Of a stretch of DNA of 64,000 nt, positions 205 to 30,000 are shown piece after piece. The stretch's first letter is position 1. Every line of letters starts with the position of its first letter. The stretch is from contig CM102290.1 of assembly GCA_046563655.1 (NCBI GenBank), forward strand, positions 8,990,001-9,054,000. Reading direction: 5' to 3'. The notes beneath the pieces are model-generated. The model saw only the letters and a program-made list of their open reading frames with translations, had not been told where the DNA came from and made no database searches. A program made the translations under genes and the position numbers. The DNA is from Yuukianura sp. NJ FZ-2021 (lineage: Eukaryota).

Positions 205-2540
205 GTAGCGATGGCTTGTTATAGATTACTTTACCGTATGAAGATATGTCAAACGACGATTGCTTCGATTGAACAGCGCTTAGTTAGTTTAAAAAAATAA
301 AGTGCTTTAGCAGAAGACACCGTTTACTCAGGAACAACTTGATTTTAGTCCTGTTGATCAATTCAATTCCAGAAAAGGAAATCCAAAGTGTATTTCCAGG
401 CACAAGGAAGGCACGCGTTGAACGAAAGACTGACGATTGAATTGTTCACAAGGAATGGGAAGTTCTGTTGAGCCGTTGGCTGGAATCGATTAAGTTTGAG
501 CCTTGACAATGACTTGCTGGGGTGATGTGAAAATGCCTATTTTTACGAATGGTGAGGGTGACGGTTTACTCTGGAAGAAGAGGCGTTGATCGTAGAGTCG
601 TAGGTGTAGTGATATCTGGAAGATCAATGTCAGTTCTATTAACCGACACTGACAGGAGGCGGCCGCGTGTCCATTGAACATGGAATGTCTCTGTAACTGA
701 TTGTCTCCTATTAGTTCAAATTGCCAGGTTTATTTTCCATTTGACCTTGAGTGTAACCTTGTAAAGGTCTCTTTTTCAGCAGAGTGCCTATGTCAAATAA
801 AAAATATACATGTAACGTTATTTCCAAGATGAAATATAAAAAATAAGGAAATAATGAAGTCAAATGTTAGGAATACTTTGAATTACCTTATAAATTGTTG
901 CACTTGACTTGACACTTGGCCTAGAAGGTTAAGAATATGGAATATAACACTTTTAACTGAATACTGTATGAAATTTCATTGTGACAGATTACGTCATATC
1001 GCTGTAATCACCCAAAACGACGTGACATTCCGGTGAGACAGGAAGCCCTTCCCAAAGCCTATAAGCGAATGTAATGTCAATATAACCAGGGAAATCCTTG
1101 TGACTTTGTTCTAAAAAGATGTTTTTAAGTTGACTGTGTCTCCTCGACTCCCTACGTCTTCTTGATTACTATCAGCAGGAGAAAGAGGCGTATATGATGA
1201 ATGGAGAGTTTGAGAATCCTTTGTTAGTTGGACTAATTGCGGTTGATAATTGGTGTAGTTGGTGCTTAAGTGTTGGTGTGGTGTTGGTGTTTCCTATAAG
1301 AACTAGTAGATGAGTCCCTAGCCCCAAGGCATGAAATGATAGTAAGTAGAGAGTAGAAGTGTTTTACTTGTACATACTTTGTTGTAACCTGTTGCATTTT
1401 CATCTCAATCTGCATCCAATGTAGGAGCATCATGTCCTTCTTCCTAACTTTCACTTTGACCTTACCATCTTAAGCGCATCTTTTAACACTCCCACGAATA
1501 AGATCAGATTCTCACCATTCGTTTTGGTCAGTACTCATCCATAAAGTATGAGCCATCAAGCAACTCCGCCTTAACGTGATTTGCGTACCTGAACCAGCGA
1601 GACTTTCAATAACTAATTGTAAATTAGGTTAGGTTATGAAAACAATAAAATAAACGATTTAGATCAAATCTGGGCTACTTAGGATACTAAACACGGCGTC
1701 TTTCGGATCTTTGGCCTTGAATGAAATGAAATGAATTTTGAATGCATTTTGAAATGAAGAAACGCGACCATTGTAATCATTTAGGTAGGTTTGGCGAACT
1801 TACCAATTTGACTAAAAGTTGTAAGAAAAATGAAATGGGAAATAATAATTAGGATGCGTTAACTGCAGAAGTTCAAATTAAGGTTGATGGGAATCCGTGA
1901 AATTGGCATAAATGCTGTTGCATAGCATTTGTTTGGACGGGATAAATCTGAACCTGTCACAAGATCATTTTGAGAAATGCTGGGTATTACCCACCCAGTG
2001 GGTAGTCCATTTTTATAGCCGTATTATAGACCTGTCAATTTTGTTTTCTAACTTCATTCATTCAAAGCTCTCACTCGGGGAGCAACAACAACAACAGGCA
2101 ATAGCCGTGACGGTGACAGCTGTTCCTGGCTATTTGGATTTGATACCGACATCGGCAAGGAAATTAGTCGGTAAATTAGATTTTGTATAATCAAAGAAAA
2201 CTTTTGGAAATGTATGGACCAAATTAAGCTTCGGTAGTTTAACTTAAAATAGGAGCTGGTCTTAGAACCGGATGCGCCCGACCTTTCTCAATTCGTCATT
2301 CATTGATACTTGAGGCATTGATATTGTGGAACGTCTGTCTGCTCCGTTTAACCTTCGTTCGTGGCTTCAACCGTTCCGGAACCAGGGTAAATTAGTTATT
2401 CGTTTATTAACCATTTTAATCATCAAAAATCTCATGTAGTTAGTAATGGTTTGTTTGGATTCGAGGCAAGGTCAAACCACTTTCATCGTCGCCATTTAAG
2501 ACTATCCTGTCTTCCTGTCTTCGTGTCAGAAGTTTTAAAG

Positions 2541-5261
2541 ATGAGTAGCATCAGGTATTTCGGAGCGGCAGACAGACGTAGAGTCTTTGCCGGAGGACTT
2601 GCTTATCATCATCGGTGCCGATTTTATGCTACGGCGACAAAAGTTTACGAAGAAGGCAAGGTGGACTGGAAGACAGATTCAGCTCAAATGCTGCCATACC
2701 GTAAACTGAAGACATACCACTTTCAAAAATCACTTCCCCGGTTACCAGTGCCTACTCTGCAAAATTCGCTGCAGCGTTATTTGGACTCAGTCCAGTGTAT
2801 TCTGTCTGCGGAAGAATTCCAGAAGACATCTGCAATATGCAAGGACTTCGGCGGAAAACTCGGCCAAGGTAGTAACCAATATTACAATCAATCGGTAGTT
2901 TCTTAATTCATTTGTTTGTATCCCATCAGAACTGCAAGCGGAACTAATACAGCTAGACAAATCTTTGAAAGGAACAAATTATATATCGGGCCCATGGTTC
3001 GACATGTATCTCAGAGATCGTCAACCATTGCCGATAAACTACAATCCCACATTGGTGTTTGTCGAAGATCCTGTCATCGACAGTTTGCCAAAACAAGTCC
3101 GTCAATTAACACGAACCACAAATCTTCTCGTTTCCGCTCTGAGGTGATTTAAAAACGCAATGAAATGTTGGGAATGTCGTTTAATGAAACCCGTTTCAAC
3201 AGGTTCTTGAAGGCTTTGGACAATGAAACTCTGGAGCCGGAAGTGTATCACATGGATCCAAAGAAATCGGATACCGACAACTATCGAACTGTGATGAAGC
3301 TAATGCCCAAGTCATATGCGACATATATCTCGTATCTGTTCAAGGTACTACTTACTAACGTAAGAATATAATTTGATGCTTTATATAAACCCGGCCGTTA
3401 TGTCATAGGCGTTCCCACTCGACATGTCACAGTACAAAAATCTATTTCGTTCTACTCGCATTCCGAAACAAGGAAAGGATGTAATCAAACGAGACGATAA
3501 AGATGTTCGTCATATAATAGTCATGCACCGTGGTCATTTCTACTCCTGCCCTGTTCTAGATTCTGACGGTATGTCGATGTTTAGCAAACCTGACTTTTTG
3601 TTACCCGCACTATGAAATGTTAACTTAACTTGTTTTCTCAGGGTACATTTTACCAATCAGTCAGCTCATGGGCAACATCGAGTCAATCCTTACCAGCGAC
3701 ATGCCACCCAGTGAGTACCCTTTAGGCATCATGACAACACAAGAACGCAATAAATGGGCTGAAGTACGCGAACGCTTGGCTAGCACAAGCGAAAGAAATT
3801 CAAAACAATTAGAAGAAATAGATCGTGCTCTCTTTGTACTTTGCCTGGATGATGCTGAATTTGGGCTAGAACCGATCCCTGTTACAAGACATTATCTTCA
3901 TTCGGATGGACGTAACCGGTAGTGTTATCGCTAACTTTTTTCTTTAGTTTTTCGTTTAGAAGTATCGCTAAATTCCTATTTTTATTTCAGCTGGTTTGAC
4001 AAGTCCTTCCAAATGATTCTGAGCAAGGATGCTTGGGCTGGCGTAACTTTTGAGCATGCGTGGGGAGACGGGGTCGCCGTGATGCGGTTCTTCAATGATA
4101 TTCATCGTGATGCCACCCAGCATCAATGGTCCAATTCTCTACATGCTAAACGCCCGCCCCTGGCTCCCGTACGACTTGGTAAATATGTCCATGAGCTCTT
4201 ATCTCTTCTGTATGATAATATTATGCATTTATTATACACTATACATAATTATACATTGTTATATTGATTTTATTGTTCCATAGTATTTGACATGGACAGC
4301 AGCGTGAAAGAATCGATCAAGGAAGCCGAGAAAAGATACAAGTCCCATACAGAAAGTCTAGAAATTGAGCCATTCATGTTTGAAAAATATGGAAGAAGTG
4401 AATGCAAGAAGTGGAAAATCAGTCCAGACTCACTCATGCAGCTTGGCTTTCAGGTACACCAAATTTCAGTACAACATTACAAAACACTTTTAAAGTTATT
4501 AGTGACTTAATGTACTGGAAATTGAAATTGTTTTAATCGCGAAGGTTGTGACATGATACAGGTTGCATACAATCGGCTATACCAACATACGCCTGCAACC
4601 TATGAATCATGCAGTACATCAGCATTCAAACATGGGAGAACAGAGGCGATTCGTCCAGCAACGACCTTTACTAAGGTAAATAATAACAAATCTGTGTAGT
4701 TTCTTTCTCCTCATGTAATCACCGAGGTGTTACAATTATTCTTGTTATAATTTTAGAGCGTAAGTGAAATAATGGCAAAGGAAAGCTGGGTAAATCAAAA
4801 GAGTGAACTAAAAGGGCTGCTCAAGAAGTGTTCTGACAAACACAATCAGCTCACGAAAGACGCTGCAATGGGTAACGATTACAGTTGCATTATTAGTTTG
4901 AATGGGAGTTCTGAATGCTAATTGGTTTTTGGAAATCTTAGGTCAAGGATTCGATAGACATCTATTTGGACTGAGACTTTTGGCAGAAAAGAAGGGTAAT
5001 TTGCCGGATATCTTCAGAGATGAAGCTTATGCTAAATTGAACAGAAACATCCTGTCCACTTCTACCCTATCGAGTCCAGCAGTACGGATTGGTGGATTTG
5101 GGCCAGTTGAACTGAATGGATTCGGCATTGGATATCAAATTTGGGAAGGTGGACTTGGATGTATCACAACTTCTTATAAGGGGCAACGTGATGCAAAAGC
5201 ATTTGTTGATACTTGTCAACAAGCGTTTAGTGATTTTGAAACCATTTTGACCTCGTCATAA
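2541..5261 (+). CDS. CPT2: Carnitine O-palmitoyltransferase 2, mitochondrial (10 exons, ~675 aa)
   Basis: Exons 2541-2868, 2930-3143, 3203-3344, 3409-3568, 3642-3918, 3991-4178, 4284-4453, 4562-4675, 4757-4871, 4942-5261, all GT-AG and in frame. Motifs: [34 protein letters not shown], catalytic [45 protein letters not shown]. Arg-rich N-terminal presequence. Confidence 0.96.
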
Positions 5262-5423: not shown

Positions 5424-7279
5424 TTACGTTTGACTCGGGGGTGGGTCCATATGCCTCTTTCTTGCCGATGGTCTTTCAAATACTTGTCTTGTTCCAGCAG
5501 CCTGAGTTGCATAGAACTTCAAATTCTGAGCAGAGTCTACAGTCCAAGCAGACTCGTAGGTGGTAGTATCTTGGTCCACAAGGTGAGTGTACTTTGTACG
5601 CCCACTTCGTCCGAAGTTCTTGACCTGCATGACCTTAGGCAATATTGTCTTGTCGAAGTGATCCTCCAGAGTAGGCAGTGAATTATCTCGCTTCAGAACA
5701 TCTTCTTCCTTGTCCTATAAGTACAAACGGTATCCACGAATGAGACTGCACGTTTTAGACAGGGGTAATGTGAGACACAGGACATAAATGTAACAAAATG
5801 GGGTAATTACCAAGTAGAAAGCTCCTCGGTGGTAATATTTCTGCAAGAACTTGTACTTTCCCTTTGAAGCCTTGTTGATGATCACCTTCGGTCGTTGTTT
5901 TAGCTCAGCCCTTCGCTCCTCCTCTGTTAAATTGTGGATTCGTTGAATTTCCAACTTCTCCTTCTCGATTCTAAGAAAATAACAAAAATATCGTTAATCA
6001 CTTCTGTTCGTTCACTCTTTGTTGTGAAATCTTACGCTTCTCTTTCATCTCTGTCCCTCTTCGTTCGTTTCAATTCGCGCAACTTCCAGGCTTCATACTC
6101 AGCATTTTCATTCTCATCATCTGTGTTTACATCTGTTAGTTGTGGAAGTGTAGCCATGGATTCTTCGTCGTCCTTGCCCGTTTTATCTCGACGAATTTCC
6201 GATTCAATTAGCTTCAGCGTTTCCATGCGCTTCTCATCCTTTTTCTTGTTACTGTTTTTGTTGCTGGAGGGAACTTCTTCCACGGCATCATTTTTAATCG
6301 TTACTCTTTGGGACTTTCTCACAAAAACGGGCTTGAGGCGCGGTGCAGCTTCGTCCTCAGAATCTGGAATGATTGAATGAAACATTATCATTTAAATTAT
6401 AGCTTGAACTGGTTAATTAACAAATGTAATTAACCTTACCTGTGTACTCTTCGTACTCCGATTCACTTTCGTCTTCGCTAGCCCCACTTTCCTTTTCTTC
6501 TTCCTTTGCCAGGATTTCATCTTCCTCCAGCTTCTCTAAGGCTCTTTGTCGAAGAATAGTACGTCTTCGCTCAATTGCTCTATCGTCTTCTTCTTCCGCT
6601 TCTGATTCGGATGAGGAATCCATTTGTCTCCCTGGACGTTCTTCATCACTAGCACTATCTTCTAGAATTTCCGGCTCTTCAATCCTTGGGATAGAATCAA
6701 AACATTATTTTAATAATTCTTAAGTTGTTATTACTTAAAATCCGCCCTGTTAAAATGTATTATTAAACCTTCTTGGTCGGCTCCGGGTATTTTCCTGAAG
6801 GCGGCGAAGCCGTGGGTCTGTCCTTTCCGCCTCTGACAAGTCGACTTTTATATCCTGTCAAATAAAACGTTAAACAATTTATACAATAAACCCAACCACA
6901 ACAGCACAATCATTGGATTTCTCTTGTGCGTGTGGCAGGGTCCCTGCCGCAGGGACGATACGGATACGTACAAAAGTTCAATCGTTGGCTTACTTCTGGA
7001 ATGTCCTCCTCTTCTAACTTTTTCATTCGATTGGGAACAATGAAATCGTCATCTTCGCTGCTTTCGTCAGTTGATATGCTTTGAGCATAGTCTGGTCGCT
7101 TTCCAGATATGTAGCGATTGACCTTCACCTTTTGCATCGATACCTGACCTGTTAAACATAATCCACATTAAAACTGGGCATTTGCCGTTGAGTTAATTGA
7201 ACATACCTTTTTCATTTTTGACAGGAACAGCCCCAGCAGTGGACTGAATCGGTATTATCGGGTTCTGCTTGCGTGACAT
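5424..7279 (-). CDS. MFAP1: Microfibrillar-associated protein 1 (spliceosomal B-complex protein; 7 exons, ~445 aa)
   Basis: Exons 7207-7279, 6994-7148, 6769-6854, 6440-6684, 6036-6363, 5811-5970, 5424-5714. Motifs: [95 protein letters not shown]. Confidence 0.96.
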
Positions 7280-9350: not shown

Positions 9351-11612
9351 TGATGGCGGTTCCGGGACAGCCAATTATCCAACATAAACTGCCAGCAATT
9401 CATTATAAACCGTTAAATTCAGATTTTAGTACTTTGTCATTATTATTAAAAGCCATTAGTACTTTGCTATTTTGGAAATTAACGTCTATCCTTCCTTAAA
9501 AAAAATAAAGTAGCTAGGTTATTGATATTTAAATTTTCGAAATTTCAGATTTCAATAAAATTTCCAACGCCTTTAATGTGAATTTGATTCATTCAGCGGG
9601 TCCCTGCTTCTTCAACAAAAACCTACGAAGCTGAAAAGCCTATAGCGTTTTAGCGTAGCTCATTTTTTTTGTCATGAGAAACCGATAGGCAAGACAACAG
9701 CCAGTCTTGCGGTAAATCTCTTTGTGAAGATGAATTTTAAGAAAAACTGGAAGCTTAATTGGCTACACAGCTACCTCAAACCAAAAGGAATCAATGGAGT
9801 TGTGGATCCGTAAAAATTGCGTAATTCAAATCTTCAGAATGAATCAAGATTCTGCTTAAGTTTTCAGAATAAAATTTGACTCAGGTCTCAGTGGACAACT
9901 AAGCAGTATTTTCGTACTAATAACCAAAAAGTAGCCATGAAGACTATCATCCAGAAAATTGTTCTAGCACTGCTAATTTGGGGTCTCCCGTTGCTACAGT
10001 ATGCTGAAAGGCTATTAGAACGACTCGAGAGGAGTTCACTGTTCCAGTTGGCTACGATTTCAAAGACATTCTTAGCAGATTCAACGAATTGTGCAATCAG
10101 TTGAGAAATTCGCAAAATAAAAGTGACTCAGATACAAAACTTTATAAAAGCGACGAAGCCCCGAACTGTCCACAACAATACTGGTTCCATGGCAGCACCA
10201 CTTCCCAGTCATCCTGAACTATTGAATGGAAGTAGCTTTTTATTCAACATCTTGAAAAATGAAACTGTCTAATAGAGTTCAACAGAAACAAGCTTTAACT
10301 TGGATTGGCCAATTATTTGAGCAGTTCCGTCAGCAAATTGGATAAAGGTTTTTCTTTGCTTCGGGCACATGAAAACCCACTACAATCAAATTTTTTTTTT
10401 CAATTTTTGGTTTTTGAAGTCCCTATTTTTAGAGACTATGGTTGGTGAAAGTCGTTTTAATTCGCAAAAAATGGATTTCGTAGATGAACGAAGGAAATTC
10501 GTGTTTGATTTGGAAGTAGTAAGGAGGCCCTGGTCAGTGGTTCTTCAACTCAATCTGGAATCTCATCTCCTCGCCTTTTGGCGTTAGTGGAGAATTTTTC
10601 ATTTGCCAACATACATATGACAATTTTGCCACCCTGATCACATTATTGGTAAAATCCGATTTGATACTTGAGTACTTAAGTACTTATTGGTTATTTGGAA
10701 TGTGTTGTGCCAGTTGTGAAGGGGAGCGTGGTAGGTCACTCATTCTTTCACTTTACATTCCGATCATGAAAACAAGGAAACTCAAAAACCAGAGGCCTCA
10801 ATTGAACCAACGCCAGCGACGTTATGGTGACCACAAAGCAACCATGTCACACATGTTGTCAGGATATGAAGCTGAAATTTTGAAATATACCCGGATGGAT
10901 CCGTTAGCAGAAACCATCAAAGAATCAAATGAACCACAAATTCGAGGACAAGATCAACCAGACCTCAATTCTTAATTCAAGTGAAAATGTGACGGCCATT
11001 AATTTTTTGAAAAAAAAATACACAAAAAATCCTGAAGATTTCATACTAACTCTCAATGGATTCGTATTGATAATCGACACAGGGCCCAAACCCTACCAAT
11101 CACAAATAGACAAAAATCCTCTTCGGCCTGTTTTTTCTTGAGAAGACGTCTGAAACGCTTCGTTGGACAAAAGAGGAAATCAGCCAGTACATACGAACAA
11201 AACTATTCACAACGTTGACCAAAAAATCAGTTAGCGTAAATAAAGAGCATTCGAATGATCACGTAATGCTCAAAAACATAACACAAGGATAAAGTCCCCT
11301 CCTCCCTTATTTAGAATTCAAATGCTATAAAGTTCACCAGAACATTTCTTTTCTTTTTTTCTTACTAAATTCGGAATAGAAGTTTATATGGCACATGAAC
11401 AGTTTTCCTGGGATGAATTTCTAAAGCAGAACCACATAAAAGAAGATCTCAACCTACAATTGTCAACAATCAAATTAGATTGCTGCTCAAACACTAACTT
11501 CTCTCGTGTGTCAGCAGGACTTTACAAACAATAAAAGACAAGTGCACAAAGTTGACTAGGAGAAATATCGGAAAGTGGTTGTCCATCCAGACATTTCAAA
11601 ACTTTGCATAAG

Positions 11613-13853
11613 ATGGACAACAGGCGCAAAATGCCTCAAACGTCAGTTTTCGTTGTACTGTTCTACCTTGCTCTGCCGGGGCATTCGAATTCGGTTGAAG
11701 TGGATACGGCCGGAGGAGCTGTGAGCCAATTGGGAACGTTATATTCCTTACGAGACAAACTCGCCAGCTTTGTGGCCATTCCAGAACAGCCAAGCGCTTC
11801 AACAGCGCGAAAAGAACGCAAACCCGCGTTTTCAAAACTTTCAGTCCCAGAAAACCAAATGTTTCAAGCGCATCCGACAGCAGAGGTCCCGCAGTATATG
11901 CCTTCGCAGTTTCAAAACCGAGTGGCAAGAATTAACAATGAACCACCACTTTCTGGATTAATTCGAAAAACGATGGTATCTGCTATTAAATGGAAAAAAG
12001 GAAAGAAGAAAGACGCTAGAATACAAAGAGGTTACAATAGCCAATCAGAAGCAGCTCCAGCATGGCCAGTTAACGTTCCCGAAAACCCAGTCAAAGAAAA
12101 GGATGCCGATGATCATGCTCCGGCGTCTCCTGGCAACGTTTTGCCAGTGTCAATTTCGACGCCACCTACAACGACCCCTCCTACAGCGCTCAGCCAAATG
12201 CAAGCCATTGGTCAAGGAGTCAGCCATGCAATTGCGGCAGTTTTGACGCGGAAGTTAATCAGAATGCTAGACCGAGATACTCCGCCTGGAATATTTGTGC
12301 CGATGAAACATTTGGTGGCTTCAGGAGACGAAATGGTGGAGTACTGGGACAAGCGAGTAAATGCACGAGATGGAAAAGATCCTGGAATTGTAGAAATGCT
12401 GGGCTACGGATTAGAACAATTGAAAAGCTTTAGAGAAGGACACGAAATCAAAGCGTCCAATCCAGTAGCCAATATGACGTCGCCTGCTAACACATATATT
12501 CATGGCTTAGTTACCGTAAAGCGATTGACCAATAGAGTCCTCGGGAGGGACACGAGTAATGAAATTGTTGGACGAGGAGGCGGGTATGGACATGACTCGT
12601 ACGGATATGGACACGGAGGATACGGGCATGGACATGGGCACATGAGTTACGGGTAAGGTCCGATAACCGGGATTATGGATAGAATTTTGCTTTTCAATTT
12701 CAAAATGAAAATGTCTTGTGAGTCCAAACTAATCCAATTTTAGGCATTATTTGGATCCGTACGCCATATTGGCAACGTTAGGATTTGGCGTCTTTCTGTT
12801 TAACGTTATTTTCCATCTACTTCAAAATCCGGAGGCAAAAGCCAGGTTCTTCGATGTCATTGACCTCGATGTTCCTATGCGTTTCTCAGATGTCCAGAGT
12901 AGTTCAAATTCAAAGGAAGTAAGTTTTCCAGAATTTAGACGAAAAAGTGAGGAAGGACTACCTTTCGGACGAGAACTATCATAAAAACAGAGTACAGTTT
13001 AGCACTTTTTAACGACGTACTTAGCTTAAAAGGCAGACTCCCTTCCATATTCAACATTTTTGTAACTTCTACTTCCACTTGGGAAAGTTTGGAATGCGCA
13101 TGACAAATGCATTAAGGACTGAATGAGTACTTGATTTAGGCATGGACATGGCGGCGGACTCTACGGTGGACTCGACCCATTCTCACTCCTTGCTGCCCTT
13201 GCATTTGGAGCCTTTCTATTACAATTACTTTTGACATTACTAACTAACACTACTGGAAGGTCAATGAACGAAGTGACTCTAAACAATCCACTTATGATGT
13301 CTGACTATCATCTGTCGAACCTCCTCAATTCCAGTACAGTAAGTTCAAGGACAGACCGGACAATGACGCTTGAAGTCAAATTCAAAATTGTGGTTATTTT
13401 TCAATGTTTTTCTATTTGGATAACGCCAGAGCGTCTTTGGTACTCCGACTGTTCGGACCAAACGAAGTGTGTTGTATGAAGGAGGACAATTATTCGACGC
13501 CATCTTGGACAAAGTAGACGGAGTGTACAAAACATACTCACAAATCAACCGGTCACCCAAATGTGTTAGGCTCCACATGTGCCGATTGGCAGCAGAAGAT
13601 TTTGCTAACGAGGAGAAGAATATAATGTCACCGCTTTTCATGTATGTTGCTTCTTCTAGCTAAAATCGCAAGTATGTCATTCTAAACCTCATCTTCAACT
13701 AATTTTTTTTTCAAAAATTGATCCAGGTTCGGGCTTCAGCAGCTAGGGAAAGAGAGGGACGCTGGACAATTTATTCGAGAAATCAAGGATCGCTTAGCCC
13801 GTGGAGAAAGTGTTGACTGTGACAAGATTGTTCCCGGATGCGAAAAAAATTGA
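11613..13853 (+). CDS. Uncharacterised secretory-pathway protein, family member 2, with two alternative hydrophobic-segment exons (~517 or ~525 aa)
   Basis: Exon 1 11613-12652 (signal peptide VFVVLFYLALPGHS, ends in GGGGYGHDSYGYGHGGYGHGHGHMSYG; start could be ATG 11631). Exon 2a 12744-12918 or exon 2b 13140-13338. Exon 3 13430-13641 (RTKR-SV, CVRLHMCR). Exon 4 13727-13853 (CDKIVPGC, stop). All junctions GT-AG. Confidence 0.8.
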
Positions 13854-14944
13854 GCTGGGGATGGACAAAATAAACAAGAAAATCAAAATTTTGGAAGGCG
13901 ACAGGTCAACAGAGGTCACTCCACTCATTGAATTCTGAAGTCCTCAGATAAGCAAACCGCCGAACGTCAAAAGTATTCCGCGTACAACACGTTGTGCTAA
14001 AATGTTTCAATTGTTCTAAATTTATTTGGTCTAATAATTTTTGAAATGAGTTGCTGGTTAAACGTGCATCCACGTAAATGTCAAGGTAGAAAAAGTAATT
14101 TATCAAATAAAAAATAGTTTCAAATTGTTGATACGCTTTGACCAATGAAGTGTCTCACATTTATTTTCGCAAGTGAAACGGAACGGATACGTCTCAGCTA
14201 TTGGCATTGGAATTGAAGGCGAAGCCATTATTATGATTGGTTGAAAAAAAAATTGCGGTTGTAATAAGTCGAGAGCCGGAATTTAGAACATCCTCCTCAC
14301 CACAGTTTTCTCGAGTTACTATTGGAAATCATGAAACTGTCCGCAAAAATTATTCGGGCATTTGGGTTAGTAGAATGAAAACCCAGATTACTATCACGAG
14401 AACGAAAACAATCGCTGAAATTATTAAAAACCATCTTAAGTAAATAAACGCAGTTTATGACACCTACTGATGGCCATGTTATACACCCATAAATACAACT
14501 TATTTTTAGATACAATTTCGGAGAAGTCTCAATCGTATTTTTAAATTTTTTTAAGTAACCTTCGAGATTTAGCACCAGCGGTTGTAATAGACAAACTGAA
14601 TAACAATATGGGGAAATCAAGCCCGTATAAAAAAAAATCGTCGTTCATGTAATAATAATAGAAAGTTAGTACTGCTAATAATTGCAAAAAAAAATCGTTT
14701 TAAAAAAAGGGAGAACGATTAAAATCGGCAACCTTCATAATGACATTCCGTAAGGAGAAAGTTTTCACTATGGTAACGAAGTTCTTGCAAAAAACAGCAA
14801 TGAATGAACAGTATAAACCTCCGGCATGCAGCAGTTTAGTGTTAGAAGCCTATGAACATTCCTTATTATTAGGAAGCATGCAAGAATTGGACTACAAGAA
14901 AGCACCAAATCGTTCATGATTGAATTTGAGCAGCGCCATCCAGG

Positions 14945-16482
14945 ATGCAACCAAAACGAAACAAAGTTCGTGAGGCAATTGTGAAAGAAATTTTGATTAG
15001 AAAGGAACTGGACAATGGTCCTCATCCAGAGAAACACAGCAGCAGGTACTTCCGGAAGCGATCGAGACGCTTTCGAAATGAGCGCCTGCGTCCATCCAAA
15101 CCGAGAAGCGTCAGTGCATTTGTGGAGGCCAACGTCCGACAACCCAGAAACAATCGAAGTATTTGGCGGAAGGAGTCAGTTACACCAATGGAACGACTGG
15201 CGGACGAACAGCTCTTCGACGCCATTAGTCAAATCTTCCAGCACAACCGCATGTTGGAAGAAATGGAACAAAAGGCACCTACGACGATAGAGTTCATGCG
15301 TCAGGGCTGGAAGTTACCATTTGCACCCAGCGGCATGCGCATTCCAGTCACACCCAAATGCATTATTGTTCCTCTGGGCTATTTTACGCGTAAGGAAAAT
15401 AGAATCCGTGCCAAGAAAAAGGCCAGGGCAAAACCGAAACCTAAGATTCCCATATTCAGCACGGAAATGAGACGAAAAATTCGGAACTTCTTAACATACT
15501 GGTTCAAGCATTACGCCCGTTACAATCAGCGACAGTATCCTATCCATTTCGCTCGTCTCTCCGATTTGGATGAAACTGGTGCGGTTATATTCAAATTCAA
15601 AATCTAGCAGAAAAATCTAAACGCCGAATAAGCTAAAAATCATTTTGTTTTCCAGAACGAATTGACTTAACGAAAAAGAATTACCAGTACTTTCCAAATC
15701 GCGGTTCGGCACAACTAACCAAACGCAAGGTTCCAATTCTTTACGATGGCTGTATGCAATGCATATTCGGAAAATACACCAACCTCAGAAAGTACAACAA
15801 GCATTTCATTACAAAGTATCGCTACAAACCTACCTACGAGTTGGACGTCAGAGATTTCAAGCTTTGGGAATCACCTAAAGACATTGAAGCAATTCGAAAA
15901 GTCTTTCTCAAATACGACAGGCAGCTCACGGGATTTGTTTCTTTTCAGGACATGTAAAAATGGATTTCTTTAAAGAGTGAATTTCGTAAAGCTCTTTCAA
16001 GTAATTTTCAAAATGATTTTTACTACAATTTAGGTGCACAATATTGGATACACTTGGGAATAAAACATCGGTTGGCCTAAGACAACAAGAGTTTGATTGG
16101 TTTACAAACTTGGGTTTAAAATCGAAACTGACGCCTCCTGGTGAAAGTATTGAGTTTGAAGAGTTTCTGCGGGTAGGATAGAAAAAAAATTACAAATCCA
16201 AAGATGAAAATTTTGATGTAATTGAAAAACGGAATTTTTGTAAATTTTATACAGGCATACTACATCTTGGAATTTAAACAAGTGGGGCCGAACCGAGGAT
16301 ATCCGAAAGAACGGCGTCTGACTCCACCTAAACCCACTAAATGGATGCCGGCAGCAGAGCGTAACAAATTTAAGCCATCGGTGCTGCATGACTTTCCGAA
16401 TTCTTTCCGCAATGGAAACCAATGTCCATCAATTATATCCACACATTCCGTCTACTGGAAGCTGTCAACGGGATTATTCTGA
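14945..16482 (+). CDS. Uncharacterised highly basic protein with a degenerate C-terminal EF-hand pair (~432 aa)
   Basis: Exons 14945-15578, 15656-15953, 16034-16172, 16255-16482 splice in frame via GT-AG. EF-hand-like segments: DIEAIRKVFLKYDRQLTGFVSFQDMCTIL and GESIEFEEFLRAY. The N-terminal half is very Arg/Lys-rich. The start codon is uncertain: a 59-codon ORF in another frame lies at 14740-14919. Confidence 0.65.
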
Positions 16483-17134
16483 AGACTTGGCAGCATTCCC
16501 TCAGCCTAACAATTATTGTACTTGACTCGATCCAAACTAAAAGCAGAACTTAATAGAAAAATAAACTGAAATTACCGGAAGTACATTCACTTGTTAACGA
16601 TTTCCGGGTGGAAATGTAATTGAAATGCAAGACGATAGATACACTTTTAAGTTGGAAGGTTAAGTATGTTGTCATAAAGTTGAATGAATCGCCACTTATT
16701 CGTTTCGGCATACTGAAAGACAAGCCCTGTTATTGAAATATTTAAAGTAATTGGACGCCATTAAACTTCTTGCTACGCTGCTAAGCCAAAACAGGAAAAA
16801 GACAAACGCAATTTTCGGGAAGGGTGCCCATTGTTATGTGCACCACGGAGGTGGTTACTGTTGTCGCTTCCTACCGCTTGGTCGTAAAAGTAAATCCCAT
16901 GAATGCATCCATCCGTCCCGCTGTCACTCATTCAAATCAAATCAAAGGAAGCGTCATAAAATGTCCGAGAAACCGTAAAAATTTAGAAATCTCACCGATG
17001 CCTGTTAACCATCATCCCGTTTTGTGTCCAAAAGAACAAATAACTGTTACACCCAAGTACATTCACAGGACCTCGCCGTGTCCAACATCATTCTTGTCTT
17101 AAACTAATTTTAACCGCCGTTGCGAAACTACGAA

Positions 17135-18048
17135 ATGAAGACATTACTAGTTCTTGCTATTGGACTTGCGTCTGCGTACCCGGGAGTCACTGGAAGTAAA
17201 ATTCACGATCCAAAGCCAGCACCAATTACAACTTCTACCAATGCGTTACATAATTCTGGACGCCTAGGACACAGTCCACGCGGAGGTGGGGCCATAACCC
17301 TTGACCCAGTTTCCATCATCAGCCTCTTAGCATTAGGTAAGACTAAGGTAGTTAGTGGAGAGAAGATTTTAATTAAACCTAACAAAAAGTTTTGAAACTA
17401 AACCGATTGATTTGAAGGGGCATTCCTTATTAACAACATTCTCCAACTTCTCCGGGCGAATCAAATGATGAATGAGACAGGGAAATCACTGGAACTTCCG
17501 GAATTAAACATTCCACTTTCAGTTCATCAATGGAAGCAACAACTATCCAGGTTTCTTAATTATAAAATACGATTCGGAAACAAGTCTCGTAAGAAATTAG
17601 GTTGTCGAAATAATGCAATTGTTAATTTAGAACTACCAACGCAGAAAACAAAGTGTCCGACATGTGGACTTTCCTGTCCAAGATGAGTTCCTTGTACTTT
17701 CTCGAAGGGAAGCGCGGTGAGTGTTTCAGGAAAGTACTATTTTGTTCAAACAATTCAGAATCGCAAAACAGCCGCTTCGTCAAAATTCTTCAATGGATTG
17801 TGTAAGTCTAAATATAAATTGTGAATGAAAAATAATGAACTATGTTAACCGTACATTTGATGAATAGAACCAGAGCTGAAAGGATTTTGAATCCAAAAGC
17901 ACGAGGTCAAAACTATATCCAAACCAACTGCAGGGACCTGGACATAACTTGCATCGACGAGATCTTGGAAAATGCAGAGTCAAATTCAGAGGCTAAGATT
18001 TACAGCATCCTGTCAACTTTTCCAATTCGACGGTCCACCCTTGGTTAA
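17135..18048 (+). CDS. Uncharacterised secretory-pathway protein, family member 3 (~228 aa)
   Basis: Exons 17135-17336, 17418-17550, 17631-17801, 17868-18048. Signal peptide MKTLLVLAIGLASA; LDPVSIISLLALGAFLINNILQLL then GKSL; CFRKVLFC; CRDLDITC. AATAAA at 18055-18060. Confidence 0.78.
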
Positions 18049-21658: not shown

Positions 21659-24600
21659 TCATTGAACGGCGATTGAGAAGGAGCTGGAGGCTAGAGTAGA
21701 TGAGCTGCTGTGACTGGAGTCTTCCTTTTTGTCTTGAACATTTCGCAAACTGGAAAACAAGTCGTCGTAGTCAATGTTTCCACTAGAAAACCGATTCTTC
21801 AAGCATGAGCTACTCGGGATAGGATGATGGAAGGAATCTTCAAACTCCCTTCGATTACTGCAACTTCGAATTTTTAATAGAACAGAGTCTGAAGTTGGTT
21901 CCAACGGTTCGTGTGGATTATTTTCAGGTACGTGGTTTTGTAATTCGAACCAGTCTTTGTATCCAAGCATTCCAGGACAACTGTGTACCCGGTACAATCC
22001 AATATTTCGGTCGCACCAATTCATCTCTCTGTCCGACAGCAAATTGAACCATTGAGTTCCAAAATGTAAATGACTTCCACTGTTATTCGATGAAATATTA
22101 GAAACATCTTCAGTCTCGCAATCATTTTTTCCCATATCACACCAGTCCTCATCATCTGCAGTTTTCTTCTTCGATTTTCCCTTAGAACTAAACTGTCTTC
22201 CTGTGGAGAATTAAAAAAAAATTGGTTATCATTCTACAATCTAGACTTAAGCATTTGAGAGCAAGCATAGGAATAAGACAAGGACATTGTTATTTATAAG
22301 GTTACCTGGACTAAGAATCCTTGTAGGAATTTGTACGCATTTAAATAAGTACATCACATATTAGGATATTATTCAACTACCAGTGTAGTTAAATCCGGAT
22401 TGTCATTGGAACTCGGGAAAAGTTATACTAAAGGGAATGTCCAGTTGGAGTTCGTACGTCTCAATTTTTAAAAGTACTCGGATATGTGGATTGACGGACC
22501 TGATTCAGGAGATACTGCTGCCTTTTCGGAAACTGTTTCGGCTAAACTCCACCTTTTTGGCCTGGACTCACAGCGATTCCATTCACCAGCAGCAGCCTCA
22601 GCATAACTCCGCCGCTTTTCAAAATTCAAAGGATTGAGTCGAGATCGGGGACTCAGCTTCTCAATATGTTTCCGTTTCTCCGGAGACTTAACGTCCTGCA
22701 CTTTGGTAGACGAAGAGGTCGGAGAAGTGAGTGCTCCAATAGCTACGGAGCAGTTCGTGACAGTAGCAGCAGCAGCCGCTCCTTCCTCCAATGAGGACCA
22801 GTGTCCACTGTCAGTAGACCATAGCTGAAAAAATACATGAGAGATTAGTATTACCATACCAGATAATGTCAACAACAAAAGGCTACAAGAAAATACCTGG
22901 AGTTGACGAGCACTTTTTGGAGACTTGAGATATAGGCCATAAGCATCAGAAAATACTCCATCATCGGGACCAGTGGATTCGTTCATTTCCCAAGAACCTG
23001 ATAGGTTCGTAAGGAGGTCATGATCAGAAATTTCAGAGCCGATCCCACTTGTACTAACCGAGTCAGAACGGGCAAAGTCCCGTTTCAATTGTTCCAAAGG
23101 GCTCGGTAGGAGGTCAGAAGCACAACTCTCCTCCAAACTACTAAAACTCGCTGTTGACGTAGCAATTGAAGACCGAGAAGTGGAGGACTCAATTCCGGTA
23201 GCAACTCTGTCCTCGCCTAGTACTGGACTTTCACCTTCTACGACTATTTTATGGATGCGGCACTTTTTCTTCATGGCATAATTATTGTCATCGTCGCTAT
23301 TACAGGAAGTCGCTGACGGTTCGAATTGCTGCTGATACTGGTCCAGGGTGGACTTCCTGTTTTTGAACCCCTTAGAGAAAGAAATGGACATGGACTGCTT
23401 CATAACAGCCTTCGTCATTGATTCCCATGTGTTTCCACCCTCCTCTTGAATTGAATTAACATTTTGATCTTTCACAAGTCGTGCAGGTCTGCTTAAACTG
23501 AACCCAATTCCTGGACTGGGCGGGTGAGTCGATGTCGGTGATGTAGCGGAACTTCCGGTTCGATTCTCTTTTCCTGGCGGCTTTTCAAACTGAAGTCTTG
23601 CCATAGCGCTGGTGGGTGAAACGTCCTTTGGACTTGTTAGACTCGTGGACGAAAATGGACACAGTCGAAGAGATAGGTTGAATCGCTTGTTTCCGGACGA
23701 ACTCGCAGGCGGTGAAATGATAGGTTGCGATGCGAAAAGAAATTCCGATGCTGAAATGGACGAAGATGCTGATGGTTGAGCCTGTGGAACCTTCTGAATT
23801 ACTTTTTCTCCAATGAGAAGCCTCTCATATTCCAGCAATTGTCCAAGAAAATTGAAATTGGGCGAAATCGTTGCTCGTTTGCCTTTCACATAGCGATACG
23901 CCTCCTCACATGTCATCTGCAAATGGCGCATGACATAAGCGATAGCAACAGTGGGCGATCTTGAAATTCCAGCCAGGCAGTGAACTAAGACGCAATCATT
24001 GGATCCCCGAACTTTTTCTGAAGAGAAAACAACATGAACAAAGTGAGACAATTGACAAATGTGATGTTAGCCAATCATGTGGTATCGTCTTTACCAATAA
24101 ATTGGAACGTTTGATTGAAAAAATTTGACAATTTCTCATTATGACTGTCGTTCACTGGGATCCTCATAAAGTGGCCGTCAGAGATGAAGTCAGGCTTTGG
24201 ACATTTATTGCTGACGTTAAGTTCATAGGTGATGTTGTGACTCTGCATTTAGTGATGACAAAATTTTAATATTCATAAGGGATGAAAATGAGCCAATGCC
24301 GGTTCAATACACTACTAACCTGCAGTAGGTCTCTATTGTTTGCATCTTCCTCAGATCCCAAATAGAGAAACGGAAGAATACGTGTAGGCCCTGCAGAAGA
24401 TGTCGGGAGACAAGGTTGAGAGAGAGCTGACAATCCCGGAAACTTCCAAACTTTGTTCTCACACAAGTCAGGATATATGGAATGGAAACTCGCGAATCCA
24501 CCTACACAATAATCACAAGTTAAGCAGCAGACATTTCTCTAAGAGAAGTATCTCCAATCAATAGTTTAAGTAGTAACGTTGACATACCCGAGAGAATGTA

Positions 24601-26137: not shown

Positions 26138-27022
26138 TTAGCGGTATGGATCATAAACCTTAATTCGACTTGGTTTGACACAGGGCTCGATGACAGCTTC
26201 GTCCCATGGTCCATAAATGTTGTTCTTGTATCTAAGTCCAACGACCATCAGGACTGGAATAACCCCACCGACAACTGCAACAGACGTTATAAAGAGCTGA
26301 AGCGTCAAAGGGGAAATAGTGGCAGTGACTAAACACCCAATGACAAGGGAACCAATTAAGCTCATCACAGAGTCCCAGAATAGCCTAGCAAATATTGGGA
26401 AGAGGATATAGATTTGAAACGTGAGGACAAGCGTCGTGAAGCAGTGAAAGTCTGATGCCAATCTCGAGGTGAGGCAGATGGAGCCGATGATTGCTGAATT
26501 AACGGAGATGGCATTTGACGTCATGAATGACTCAATTCCATAGAAGGATGTGCAGAGGTGGACGAGGGAACTGATTCCAGCAATGTACTGAATTGTGTTC
26601 GAACTGATTTCAACCGTGAGAGATCGCAGAACGGGGGCCATTTGGTAGGAGAACAGGAGGAAGGCCACGTAGAGTCGGAGATGTTCTTTTCGCCAGTGAG
26701 TCGGCGGGGTCAAGCGTCGTCCAGCGTAGACGTCAGCCACTGTGTTCCCAAAGAGGTAGCCAAGGACGGAGAACGCTATGCATGGATACAGAATCCTGTC
26801 TGGCTCAATATTTCCATTGGTAAAGTGAAAGTAGACGACATGGAAGACGCAGACGGCTGTGAACTGCACAATGCACCGACTGGACTTGAGCATGGTTTCA
26901 CGGATTGTCCAAGTACAAGGGTATGGATTCGTTTTGAGCCCTTGGAAAAGCCCTTCGTGTTCATAGTTGTCTGGGCCCTCGACGGGGTCATAGAGCGTCC
27001 CTGCCGTGCCCCCTCTCGTCAT
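26138..27022 (-). CDS. PIGC: Phosphatidylinositol N-acetylglucosaminyltransferase subunit C (PIG-C/GPI2), intronless CDS, divergent (294 aa)
   Basis: Single ORF with multiple hydrophobic segments and GPI2-type motifs: LY....PDNY, PVLRSLT..ISSNTI, SVNSAIIGSICLTSRL, KNNIYGPWDEA. A possible 5' UTR splice acceptor (TTTTAG) lies at 27040-27041. Confidence 0.88.
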   Translation of the reverse strand: MTRGGTAGTLYDPVEGPDNYEHEGLFQGLKTNPYPCTWTIRETMLKSSRCIVQFTAVCVFHVVYFHFTNGNIEPDRILYPCIAFSVLGYLFGNTVADVYAGRRLTPPTHWRKEHLRLYVAFLLFSYQMAPVLRSLTVEISSNTIQYIAGISSLVHLCTSFYGIESFMTSNAISVNSAIIGSICLTSRLASDFHCFTTLVLTFQIYILFPIFARLFWDSVMSLIGSLVIGCLVTATISPLTLQLFITSVAVVGGVIPVLMVVGLRYKNNIYGPWDEAVIEPCVKPSRIKVYDPYR

Positions 27023-30000
27023 GCTTTTGTCGTATTCTTCTAAAAACTGGCAAACTTAAAAAGATCTTCTGCTCCCGTGATTTCTGAAATAGAATGAAAA
27101 GAGAAAATGAGCTCAAGCCTTTTTGATTGAACTTCCGGAGGTGGAAGGAAACTCTTGAATAGAAACGAGTCACTGCTTCCAGTCACTCTCAAATAAATTG
27201 AAACCTTTGTTATACTTTTCCATAATAGTTGACATACTCTGAGAGTTTAGTATATGCTTACGCAGTCAAGTAAGAGGACTTGAAAGACGGAGGAAGTAAA
27301 TGGGGGCCTATCTCATTGTTAAGTATTTAGATTATTTAGTCGTCAGGGAGAAAGTTGAAGGTGTAGTTTGAGTCAAGTGAACCAAATCCAATAATAATCC
27401 AGTTCCTTTCAAGTTCTCTTTCAGTATTTGGAATTAGATTGAGAGTGATTGACGCAAGGGTGTAATAAAAGGGAAATTTAGGCATACTTTCTCCACTTTC
27501 ACTCTCACATGACAGCAAACCTTTAGTTGACGAAAACAACTTTTTTTTTCTTTTTGCAAAGGAGAAAGGATGAGTTAAATTGGAGATTCTTGTTCGTCGG
27601 TGTCTGGAAATGTCCTGGATGGATCCACCATCGCTTCGTCGTCAGCCCTTTTCTTCTTTCTAATGCTCAGATATTGATATTGATGTGTTCAGAAATAAGG
27701 AAGCAGAGGAAAAGAGTGACAGGAGCAGAGTCAGCGACGGAGAAAGCGCGACAGAAAGTTCGAATTCTAAATCCTTTGCGATTGATGGGATCAGTGTTGC
27801 ACTTATGATGAAAAAAAAAATCCGCCGATTCCCATTCTGGAATCTCCTTCTCCTATTTCATATTCCTATTCCAAAAGTGCTCTCGTTTCAAAATTATTGG
27901 AATTGGAATGCGATGCAGGGAGGAAGCAGAGAAAGGATTCACTTTGCACGATACAGCTAGGAAAGGAATTCAAGAGCACTTTCAATCAAAAAGAGTTAGA
28001 GATTTCATGGGAGATGAATTGAAAGTAATCTCTTCATCTTTCATGTTAAGACCTTGATCAGTCTAGCCCTAGATGCAATTTCAATCTCAAGGGACATGCT
28101 GGACAGCAAAACTCCATCTCATCATGGACAGATGACGGATATTGAAAGTCCAAAATCTAATAGTTTCATGATTCTCAATCTTTCCTCCTTCTTGCCCTAA
28201 CGTCTACACGATTTTCCCTAGGGAAAAGTCCAGAGAAAGTCGGAAGCATTCCCAAACATTGGGAAAGCTGCTGCTGTCCGCTCCTCTTGAGACTCACAAT
28301 TTTTAGCATCATCCCTAATAATCATAGCGTACAGTTGACGGCAGGGTCCGTCCTCCACGACTATTTTTCATGATCCCACAAGCTGCTCTAAACATTACTC
28401 TTAAATGCTGAGTTCCAAGTCGCCACGACATCCTTTCATCTCTTTCTCCACTGCCTTCGTCGTAGAATTAAAAGACAAATTCAATATTTTGTCCACTTCT
28501 GTAATAAGGGCGTTCATTTCAATAAAAGCTTTTCTCTGTCCACTTTCACCACTACTTACTCCAACTGCTCTCTCTAACCAAAGTTCCAACAATCTTTAGA
28601 AACATTTGTTTCCAGTTCAACTTTTCTTCCAAAGCTAGCCATTACAAACTTTGTTTCGAATACTAGTCGAATAGAATAGAAATTTGGAATAGAAGCCCAT
28701 GAGGTTAGTTGTTTGTTACATTTTAAAGATTGGAGTCCCGAGGAGTGCAGAGAGAGCAGACAATGATTATTTTTAGGAAAGAAGATTCAAGTTGCCTCTC
28801 AATCTCCAACCTCAGTGACATTTTGAGATTTCCTACGAGAGAAAGAGCTGGAAGTGAAGGGAGACGTTTTTTTCAAACCAAGTTCAGCAGATCTGGAATC
28901 AAGAAAGGTAAGAGATGCTCAGAGTGGGTTCAAAATGGAGAAATGACAATGGGATCCCAGTCGAGCTGGGATTGGGAAATAGGCACTGGAGATTTATAGG
29001 ATGAAGAACTGGAGAGAGGTTTGTTTGGCAGAAATGTGTGAAGGGGGTATTGGGGAGGAGAGGCCTTAGTGCAACGCAGTCAAATATTCGTTGAGAGCGT
29101 TCTAAAAGTTGGCATTGGGTACTTCTGGTGACGGGTGACATGAAGGGCTGTGTCATGGCCGTGGTGAGTTGTGCGGTTAGTTATGGTGGCTCAGGTTTTA
29201 ATGATTGATGGTCGGAAGATGGCCTTGTGCCACAACAGTCTGTCTCCTTGTTTACTCCTGCCAGTGTCATACGTTCTCATCCACGTCCTTCGACGCAACA
29301 TACAATACGAAGACGCCTGAACTGGTCTTCCACAGGAACTTAGGCAGAATGACAATGACTTTGGTGTGGAGGGGAGGAGGAGGAGGGGGAGGTGGTGAAG
29401 AGGTTCGGAGAAAGTGCTGAAATCAAGATGAAAGGAACCCAAGAATTCCACTCTACAAAGATAAACTTTTGGATCTGGAGAACCAATAAAGGGATTCCAG
29501 TGAGAAAAAGGAAACTTTCTTTGAGCCAATTCTCATTCACTTAAATCATCACCTTCCCTCTACCACCTTCCCAAATTTCCAAAATTCCAAATACCAAAAT
29601 CCAAATCCAATTTCTTGCGCAAATGTGTCTATTCTCTGCATGAAACCATTCTGGCCGTTCCAAGTCAGCAAATTCGAGTCTAAAATTACTCCTGTTTGCC
29701 TCTCCAGTTTGCTTCCGTAATGAGCCGGATGCATTCGTTAAGCTTAATTGTTGATGAGGAAAAAGAAAAATTGCTGAGAAGATATTTTTTTTAGTTGGAA
29801 TTCAATAATTCAAAAACTTCGTTCGTTAAAAGATAGGATCCTGATTAGAAATTCCTTGCTTCTGTAAAAGCTCCTTGCAAGGCTAAAAATAAAAACAAAT
29901 TTTCGTTTGCTTTCAGTTCAAAATCAATAATCAATCTTCATTTCCATTCAAAGGATATATCGGTCTCTCCGTATTACGTGAAGAAAGTCTCCAGACATCT

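Follow-up and report, generated by a model that had tools for sequence, protein, structure and literature searches.

In the 64,000-nucleotide (nt) stretch of contig CM102290.1 of Yuukianura sp. NJ FZ-2021 that was analysed here (positions 8,990,001 to 9,054,000 of the forward strand; hereafter, the window, with positions counted from its first letter), a four-exon springtail gene contains two tandem-duplicated exons, 2a and 2b, that very probably are mutually exclusive and guarded by the reading frame, such that the gene would encode two single-pass membrane proteins, of 511 and 519 amino acids (aa), differing only in the module that the alternative exon supplies. The analysis establishes how the gene is built and how the frame constrains the exon pair, that the two exons are homologous and each has its own orthologues, that both are under purifying selection and that the segments they encode are hydrophobic.

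Reading-frame constraint on the alternative exons

All exons of the gene are on the + strand. The coding part of exon 1 (11631-12652) belongs to a frame that is open from 11556, with the start ATG at 11631 and another in-frame ATG upstream, at 11613, and its product consists of a signal-peptide-like N-terminus, a conserved domain of ~130 residues and a Gly/Tyr/His-rich stretch. The exon closes with 2 nt of a Gly codon at 12652 and is followed by the donor GTAAGG and the 91-nt, phase 2 intron 1 (12653-12743; acceptor TTTAG). Exon 2a (12744-12918; 175 nt, 1 mod 3) is preceded by TTTAG, starts with GCAT, is followed by GTAAGTT, and codes for the 2a-type membrane helix DPYAILATLGFGVFLFNVIF along with an acidic juxtamembrane motif. 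Exon 2b (13140-13338; 199 nt, 1 mod 3) has the same acceptor, TTTAG/GCAT, and the same donor, GTAAGTT, and codes for the 2b-type membrane helix DPFSLLAALAFGAFLLQLLLTLL and the juxtamembrane motif; the 9-nt word TTTAGGCAT at the acceptor recurs exactly, as a direct repeat, at 2a and 2b (repeat family D11). The intron that separates the two exons (12919-13139; 221 nt, donor GTAAGTT, acceptor TTTAG) leads, if retained, to a TAA at 12982-12984, and retention of the 91-nt intron after 2b (13339-13429) leads to a TGA at 13477-13479. Exon 3 (13430-13641) encodes FGTPTVRTKRS and the first Cys pair (C-x5-C) and ends at the donor GTATGT at 13642, whereas the coding part of exon 4 (13727-13853) encodes the second pair (C-x6-C) and includes the stop codon TGA (13851-13853).

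The coordinates, lengths, splice sites, phases and peptides of the exon pair that had been given in an earlier sequence-only reading of this stretch all proved correct when the sequence was read again, and the same holds for the frame rule that it formulated, namely, that inclusion of a single exon keeps the frame and inclusion of both or neither shifts it. The upstream intron splits a Gly codon after 2 nt (phase 2), and both 2a and 2b end on a codon boundary (phase 0). Splicing in silico with 2a alone produces a protein of 511 aa and with 2b alone a protein of 519 aa, with the TGA in exon 4 as the common stop. Because the lengths of 2a and 2b are both 1 mod 3, a messenger RNA (mRNA) containing both exons or neither is frameshifted and ends early, at a TAA inside 2b (13245-13247) upon double inclusion and at a TAG in exon 3 (13515-13517) upon double skipping. 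The homology of the two peptides, also claimed in that reading, is borne out by 16 identical residues out of 46 (35%; BLASTP E 2e-5 in a single comparison) and by the presence of a like pair in a metagenomic locus, L003, described below. The sequence-only reading had further allowed that 2b might belong to a separate transcript with its own start; a start within 2b is unsupported, with an in-frame stop (13132-13134) located just upstream and the sole in-frame Met positioned after the helix. A six-frame motif scan of the whole window detected three occurrences of the module, two of them being 2a and 2b and the third belonging to a neighbouring gene (~17303), so that there is no third copy inside the gene under study.

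Counterparts of the two exons in other springtails

A protein search with exon 1 retrieved six relatives, and in the best BLASTP local alignments, exon 1 is 36-49% identical to P0001-P0004, which include the product of Folsomia candida LOC110858010. This F. candida orthologue, annotated as 'uncharacterized protein', has two isoforms, X1 (XP_021962327.1; 541 aa) and X2 (XP_035714453.1; 540 aa), that are identical outside residues 366 to ~424; the differing segment is HYLDPYAILATLGFGVFLFNVIF... in X2, which is of the 2a type, and GLDPFALLAALAFGAFLLQLLLTLL... in X1, which is of the 2b type. Thus, the isoforms of the orthologous gene differ solely in the segment homologous to 2a and 2b, at an exon 1 identity to the window gene of only 36% in the best BLASTP local alignment (41% in a separate alignment). 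The lengths of X1 and X2 differ by one residue, and hence both Folsomia exons are of equal length modulo 3. The F. candida cluster that we examined contains two single-inclusion models only. The same isoform pair is already public in the F. candida annotation and is undescribed there; our literature search found no paper naming LOC110858010, and the papers on Folsomia splicing, judging by their titles and the openings of their abstracts, do not deal with this gene.

One scan of metagenome contigs yielded three loci, L001, L002 and L003. The Folsomia-like L003 contains the whole gene, ~70% identical to that of Folsomia in exon 1, with exon 1 extending to position 10449 of that locus, 2a at 10572-10749 (178 nt), 2b at 10975-11155 (181 nt) and exon 3 starting at 11273. 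The order and phases of the pair are the same as in the window, both exons are 1 mod 3, and the middle intron is 225 nt long. L001 includes a 178-nt 2a exon and L002 a partial 2a exon. The exon lengths differ between the two complete loci, 175 and 199 nt in the window vs 178 and 181 nt in L003. An exact repeat of 13 nt, GGCATGGACATGG, is found at 12625-12637, in the His/Gly-coding end of exon 1, and at 13139-13151, across the 2b acceptor, indicating that the window 2b starts with a copy of the exon 1 HGHG repeat; this HGHG extension is not present in the 2b exons of L003 or F. candida.

Among other springtails, the Allacma fusca model P0010 joins exon 1 to a 2b-type exon and then to exon 3, and in a tblastn search this protein aligns to the window in exon 1 (11646-12590), 2b, exon 3 (13433-13645, 52% identity) and exon 4 (13728-13841), whereas the Orchesella dallaii model P0011 is of the 2a type; the O. 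dallaii annotation is described as having been made with RNA sequencing data (PMC12693562). The orthologues of 2a are found in F. candida X2, O. dallaii P0011 and the 2a exons of L001, L002 and L003, and those of 2b in F. candida X1, Allacma P0010, the 2b exon of L003 and P0035. Allacma belongs to Symphypleona, and Folsomia and Orchesella to Entomobryomorpha. The O. dallaii P0011 protein (710 aa) resembles a fusion with the next paralogue, with a second signal-like stretch and a second DP-helix, LLDPYSVLGVLSFGVYIF, beyond the usual C-terminus.

Conservation of both exons and age of the duplication

A profile search of 1.84 billion representatives produced 56 matches at E <= 0.001, many of which are short genomic reading frames that span one exon type and continue into the intron. 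In 11 of the 12 rows of the 2a type, the 20-residue core of the helix is identical; in the five rows of the 2b type, the 23-residue core varies at four positions, namely position 4 (A or S) and positions 12, 20 and 21, where Allacma has substitutions. Between the window and L003, 22 of the 24 helix core residues are retained in 2a and the same number in 2b, compared to 139 of 322 residues in exon 1 and 31 of 70 in exon 3. The cores are retained despite saturation of the synonymous difference (pS 0.74-0.85 for 2a and 0.78-1.03 for 2b; in the cores, 0.85 and 1.03, respectively), and the DNA alignments of both exons display third-position wobble, the pattern of coding conservation. As judged from these comparisons, both exon types are under strong purifying selection in several springtail lineages, which is the outcome of the conservation check that the sequence-only reading had proposed for the two exons.

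A maximum-likelihood tree was built from 30 rows and 53 columns, with the malacostracan sequences as the outgroup. The five 2b rows form a single clade with 100/100 support, a single 2a clade is allowed by the tree test (p 0.26), and the single-copy sequences of Daphnia are placed just outside 2a and 2b combined. The AU test rejects a recent, species-specific duplication, in which 2a and 2b of the window would be sisters (p-AU 0.0002). This placement implies that the duplication predates the split of the sampled springtails and postdates their split from branchiopods, although the small number of columns limits how far the dating can be pushed. In the favoured scenario, an exon encoding the end of the stalk, the helix and ~30 juxtamembrane residues would have been duplicated in tandem before the sampled springtails diverged.

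Given that the window copies are the most diverged of their respective types (end branches of 0.5 for 2a and 0.33 for 2b), it could be argued that only one of the exons is functional in the window species and that the other, though still exon-like in appearance, is a duplication relic undergoing decay. We find this highly improbable: both copies have an open frame, canonical AG and GTAAGT sites and a length of 1 mod 3, and both keep 22 of 24 core residues relative to L003 in the face of synonymous saturation; moreover, identity is 79% between window 2b and P0035 and 74% between window 2a and its L001 counterpart. In the favoured reading, both exons would be spliced in this species, and the mRNAs containing both exons or neither are unproductive and presumably cleared by mRNA surveillance. 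Exclusivity could also be less than strict, if double inclusion or skipping is frequent and the resulting unproductive mRNAs serve, under regulation, to adjust the protein level. Both aberrant forms indeed end early, as splicing-coupled decay requires, but nothing in our data points to dosage regulation, and the F. candida cluster is limited to the two single-inclusion models; because both peptides are conserved, the coding output is what selection sees, and we regard regulation of dosage as an improbable role for the pair.

The membrane helices and the predicted topology

Each isoform contains one hydrophobic peak, with a 19-residue Kyte-Doolittle mean of 2.17 in 2a and 2.43 in 2b; the hydrophobic N-terminus is signal-peptide-like as read from the sequence. 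In all six proteins examined, the 15 residues before the helix include no Lys or Arg and the 15 residues after it include one or two, and in the malacostracan relatives, runs of RRRR or RKR appear shortly past the helix. The absence of Lys and Arg before the helix and their presence after it suggest a single-pass topology in which the protein most likely has its N-terminus outside and its C-terminus inside.

Four cysteines are conserved in the C-terminal region, with spacings in the window of C-x5-C and C-x6-C. An R-T-K/R-R motif follows FGTPT in exon 3 (13451-13462), in the form RTKR in the window isoforms and RTRR in F. candida, and has no equivalent in Daphnia or Portunus; were this part of the protein lumenal, contrary to the topology proposed above, the motif could serve as a convertase site. 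These features can be combined into a different reading, in which the hydrophobic segment does not span the membrane and is, instead, a buried or membrane-inserting element of a secreted protein cut at RTKR, with the exons swapping a secreted hydrophobic module. Conservation of R-x-K/R-R in springtail exon 3 and of the four cysteines in the C-terminal domain is compatible with such a protein, and the degree of invariance of the hydrophobic core is unusual for a simple anchor. However, the Kyte-Doolittle values of both segments over 19 residues are those of a membrane helix, basic residues are clustered directly after the segment in the crustacean relatives, the dibasic motif is missing from Daphnia and Portunus, and AlphaFold2 places a helix at residues 372-398, with low confidence. 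On balance, a secreted product appears distinctly unlikely, and we retain the single-pass membrane protein as the preferred reading.

The AlphaFold2 model, obtained from a 15-row alignment, is confident for residues 450-541 only, which are predicted to form four helices. A fold search with this model (VIA, 48,161 chains) returned generic helical matches, the best with Z 6.6 and a root-mean-square deviation of 4.6 over 76 residues and none at Z >= 8; scores of this size for helical bundles may reflect just a common arrangement. A sequence-profile search of the PDB gave chance-level rows only (best E 0.061).

The module supplied by the alternative exon comprises the end of the Gly/Tyr-rich stalk, the helix and ~30 juxtamembrane residues. 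The outer half of the helix is common to both types (DP-Y/F-x-x-L-A-x-L-G/A-F-G-x-F-L), in contrast to the inner half, which is F-N-V-I-F-x-L-L in 2a vs L-Q-L-L-L-T-L-L in 2b. At position 17, an amide is kept, Asn in 2a or Gln in 2b, and in most of the relatives, 2a has a longer linker leading to the conserved acidic motif than 2b does. The exon swap would thus alter the half of the helix in the inner leaflet (FNVIFxLL vs LQLLLTLL, with Asn vs Gln mid-membrane) together with the spacing to the acidic motif, and this would affect helix-helix partners, juxtamembrane contacts or membrane sorting but not the ectodomain or the tail.

From this, we tentatively propose that the two helices, instead of being interchangeable anchors, might be sequence-specific intramembrane interaction modules, with exon choice switching membrane partners, oligomeric states or membrane domains, and that the module (the DP-helix, RSLDVxDLxxPLxLSD and the four-cysteine helical tail) might define an undescribed pancrustacean family organized in tandem clusters. 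The basis for this possibility is twofold: the helices are nearly frozen since before the sampled orders split, at an ectodomain identity of ~40%, and the mid-membrane amide is kept along with a face of small residues, A-x-x-G/A-x-G. Near-invariance of both helices while the rest of the protein diverged indicates that the helices themselves carry a function.

The sequence-only reading had held that the gene appears to encode exactly two productive isoforms with a swapped hydrophobic segment, and the frame arithmetic, the F. candida X1 and X2 isoforms, L003, the signs of selection and the hydrophobicity of both segments all support this claim. Several observations nevertheless weigh on the other side. 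The F. candida isoforms are annotation models produced by a pipeline; Allacma and O. dallaii contribute one model each, with one exon type each; and the L001 and L002 contigs stop short of any 2b, so that the two-exon layout is seen in both loci that reach far enough (the window and L003), out of four. The 53-column tree nests the 2b clade inside a 2a grade, and the order of events is therefore weakly resolved. The N-out/C-in topology is derived solely from the positive-inside rule, and the four conserved cysteines and the RTKR/RTRR motif in the C-terminal part are equally compatible with a lumenal location. Finally, the AlphaFold2 model is poor (mean pLDDT 39.9, pTM 0.24).

An unnamed protein family and its tandem paralogues

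No Pfam match was detected with hmmscan for the five exon peptides at E up to 1 or for the full-length springtail proteins P0004, P0007, P0010 and P0011 at E up to 10, and the 22 further family members had no match either, except for a sub-threshold glycine-rich one on P0029. The relatives that could be named come from the springtails F. candida, A. fusca and O. dallaii, from Daphnia pulex, D. magna and D. carinata, and from eight malacostracan species (nine named clusters); no insect was found among the 13 named clusters that came from name look-ups and the Daphnia search, the other profile-search matches being nameless or not looked up. The Daphnia proteins, at 223-229 aa, start just before the helix and lack the exon 1 domain. 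By these sequence comparisons, the gene product is an uncharacterized protein of an unnamed family seen in springtails, Daphnia and malacostracans.

A paralogue located at 17291-17557 of the window (+ strand) has the same module, GAITLDPVSIISLLALG, followed by an intron and GAFL..., with the intron inside the helix. Its Allacma orthologue is P0037, encoded on the contig that also has the Allacma orthologue of the gene studied here, and the L003 copy is at 15979-16803 of that locus. The presence of this paralogue alongside the gene in the window, Allacma and L003 indicates that the family forms a conserved tandem cluster. Additional paralogues flank the gene in L003, at 3884-4090, 6057-6860 and 14303-14476, and consist of Gly/Tyr-rich stretches followed by DP-hydrophobic segments; that at 6057-6860 matches O. 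dallaii P0048, and no counterpart of the gene at 14303 was found in the window. Other neighbours in the window are exons of a choline/carnitine O-acyltransferase (2391-5261, + strand), a dual-specificity phosphatase (22468-24066, - strand) and GPI2, a subunit of phosphatidylinositol N-acetylglucosaminyltransferase (26138-27055, - strand).

The closest named neighbours in a language-model comparison, which we treat as leads only, are the DM4_12 and Osiris/DUF1676 families of insects, with scores of 0.81-0.86 when the entire protein is compared and 0.80-0.82 for its C-terminal part. Both families share with the present one the restriction to arthropods, the combination of a signal peptide, one membrane helix and a cysteine pair, and the organization in tandem gene clusters; here, however, the cysteine pair comes after the membrane helix, not before it. 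We rejected assignment to Osiris (DUF1676, PF07898) given that there was no Pfam match at E up to 10 and that AQxLAY, a motif located after the membrane helix that is given as a feature of Osiris (PMC3284338), is absent from all 11 family proteins checked. Assignment to DM4_12 (PF07841) was rejected as well, with no Pfam match at E up to 10 and, as its sole support, the language-model neighbours, which score 0.80-0.86 and lie in clusters with 17-89% of the members carrying the family.

Exon choice and comparison with known mutually exclusive exons

Steric hindrance between the splice sites of the two exons is excluded by the length of the middle intron, 221 nt in the window (225 nt in L003): in Caenorhabditis elegans, the intron-length limit for this mechanism is given as ~40 nt (PMC4165533), and the gene model includes spliced introns of only 91 nt on either side. 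Incompatibility of U2 and U12 sites was also rejected, all three donors being GTAAG(G/T) and the acceptors AG, when set against the U12 donor consensus.

Competing base-pairing between introns, with a docking site and selectors as in Dscam, 14-3-3 zeta and Mhc, is described as the major mechanism for mutually exclusive exons of arthropods (PMC6071210), and it could choose the exon here too, in which case the frame rule would be incidental. There are imperfect inverted repeats that pair intron 1 with the middle intron (27 nt, 70% complementary, and 15 nt, 80%) and with the last intron (18 nt, 72%, and 17 nt, 76%), but the energies of the intron-intron duplexes are within the range of dinucleotide shuffles, both in the window (z -0.16, -1.6 and +0.26) and in L003 (z -1.06, -1.33 and +1.0), and folding of the pre-mRNA stretch as a whole is likewise not superior to that of shuffles (z +0.83; 16 of 20 shuffles at least as good). 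The check on competing intron pairing that the sequence-only reading had suggested thus gave no signal beyond shuffles in the window or L003, two loci being too few for exclusion; these are the only loci with all three introns, which are not alignable between them. We consider selection of the exon by intron pairing to be unlikely. A perfect 10-nt inverted repeat between 2a (12857-12866) and 2b (13258-13267) was discarded, being, by a rough estimate, close to the chance expectation in 881 nt and, by eye, not kept in L003. A scan of the middle intron for bacterial-type promoters and terminators, which is not applicable to a eukaryote, found none. Within the favoured reading, mutually exclusive and frame-guarded use of 2a and 2b, the choice between the exons would be made by splicing regulators, and the role of the frame would be that of a fail-safe, not of a selector.

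Isoforms of Dscam are targeted to dendrites or to axons. Exon 17 of Dscam1, a single-pass protein, consists of two mutually exclusive transmembrane exons in pancrustaceans (PMC3364881), and the present gene is similar in that a pair of exons swaps the membrane-spanning segment. The likeness to Dscam1 drawn in the sequence-only reading is fair as an analogy of logic, but it does not extend to the protein, which is unrelated (no Ig, FN3 or Pfam match). The choice of Dscam exon 17 involves steric hindrance and RNA structure, according to the title of a reference in PMC6071210, whereas here, the middle intron is 221 nt long and no RNA structure signal was found.

The arrangement described here reveals no new mechanism, homologous mutually exclusive pairs with lengths that are not multiples of three (non-3n) being a known class; what would set it apart is that a deeply conserved, frame-guarded pair exchanges an entire membrane helix, in a basal lineage of hexapods whose splicing has received hardly any study, and the gene lends itself, as a natural experiment, to asking what a single-pass helix is able to specify. 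FGFR2, with exons IIIb and IIIc, is another such case, to judge from the title of a work cited in PMC6071210. Of 29 mutually exclusive clusters in C. elegans, 19 are reported to be non-3n, and 14 of these 19 to depend on nonsense-mediated decay (PMC4165533). As these C. elegans pairs are described there, they resemble 2a and 2b in being homologous, arranged in tandem and similar in length, with double inclusion or skipping shifting the frame, in another organism and another gene family.

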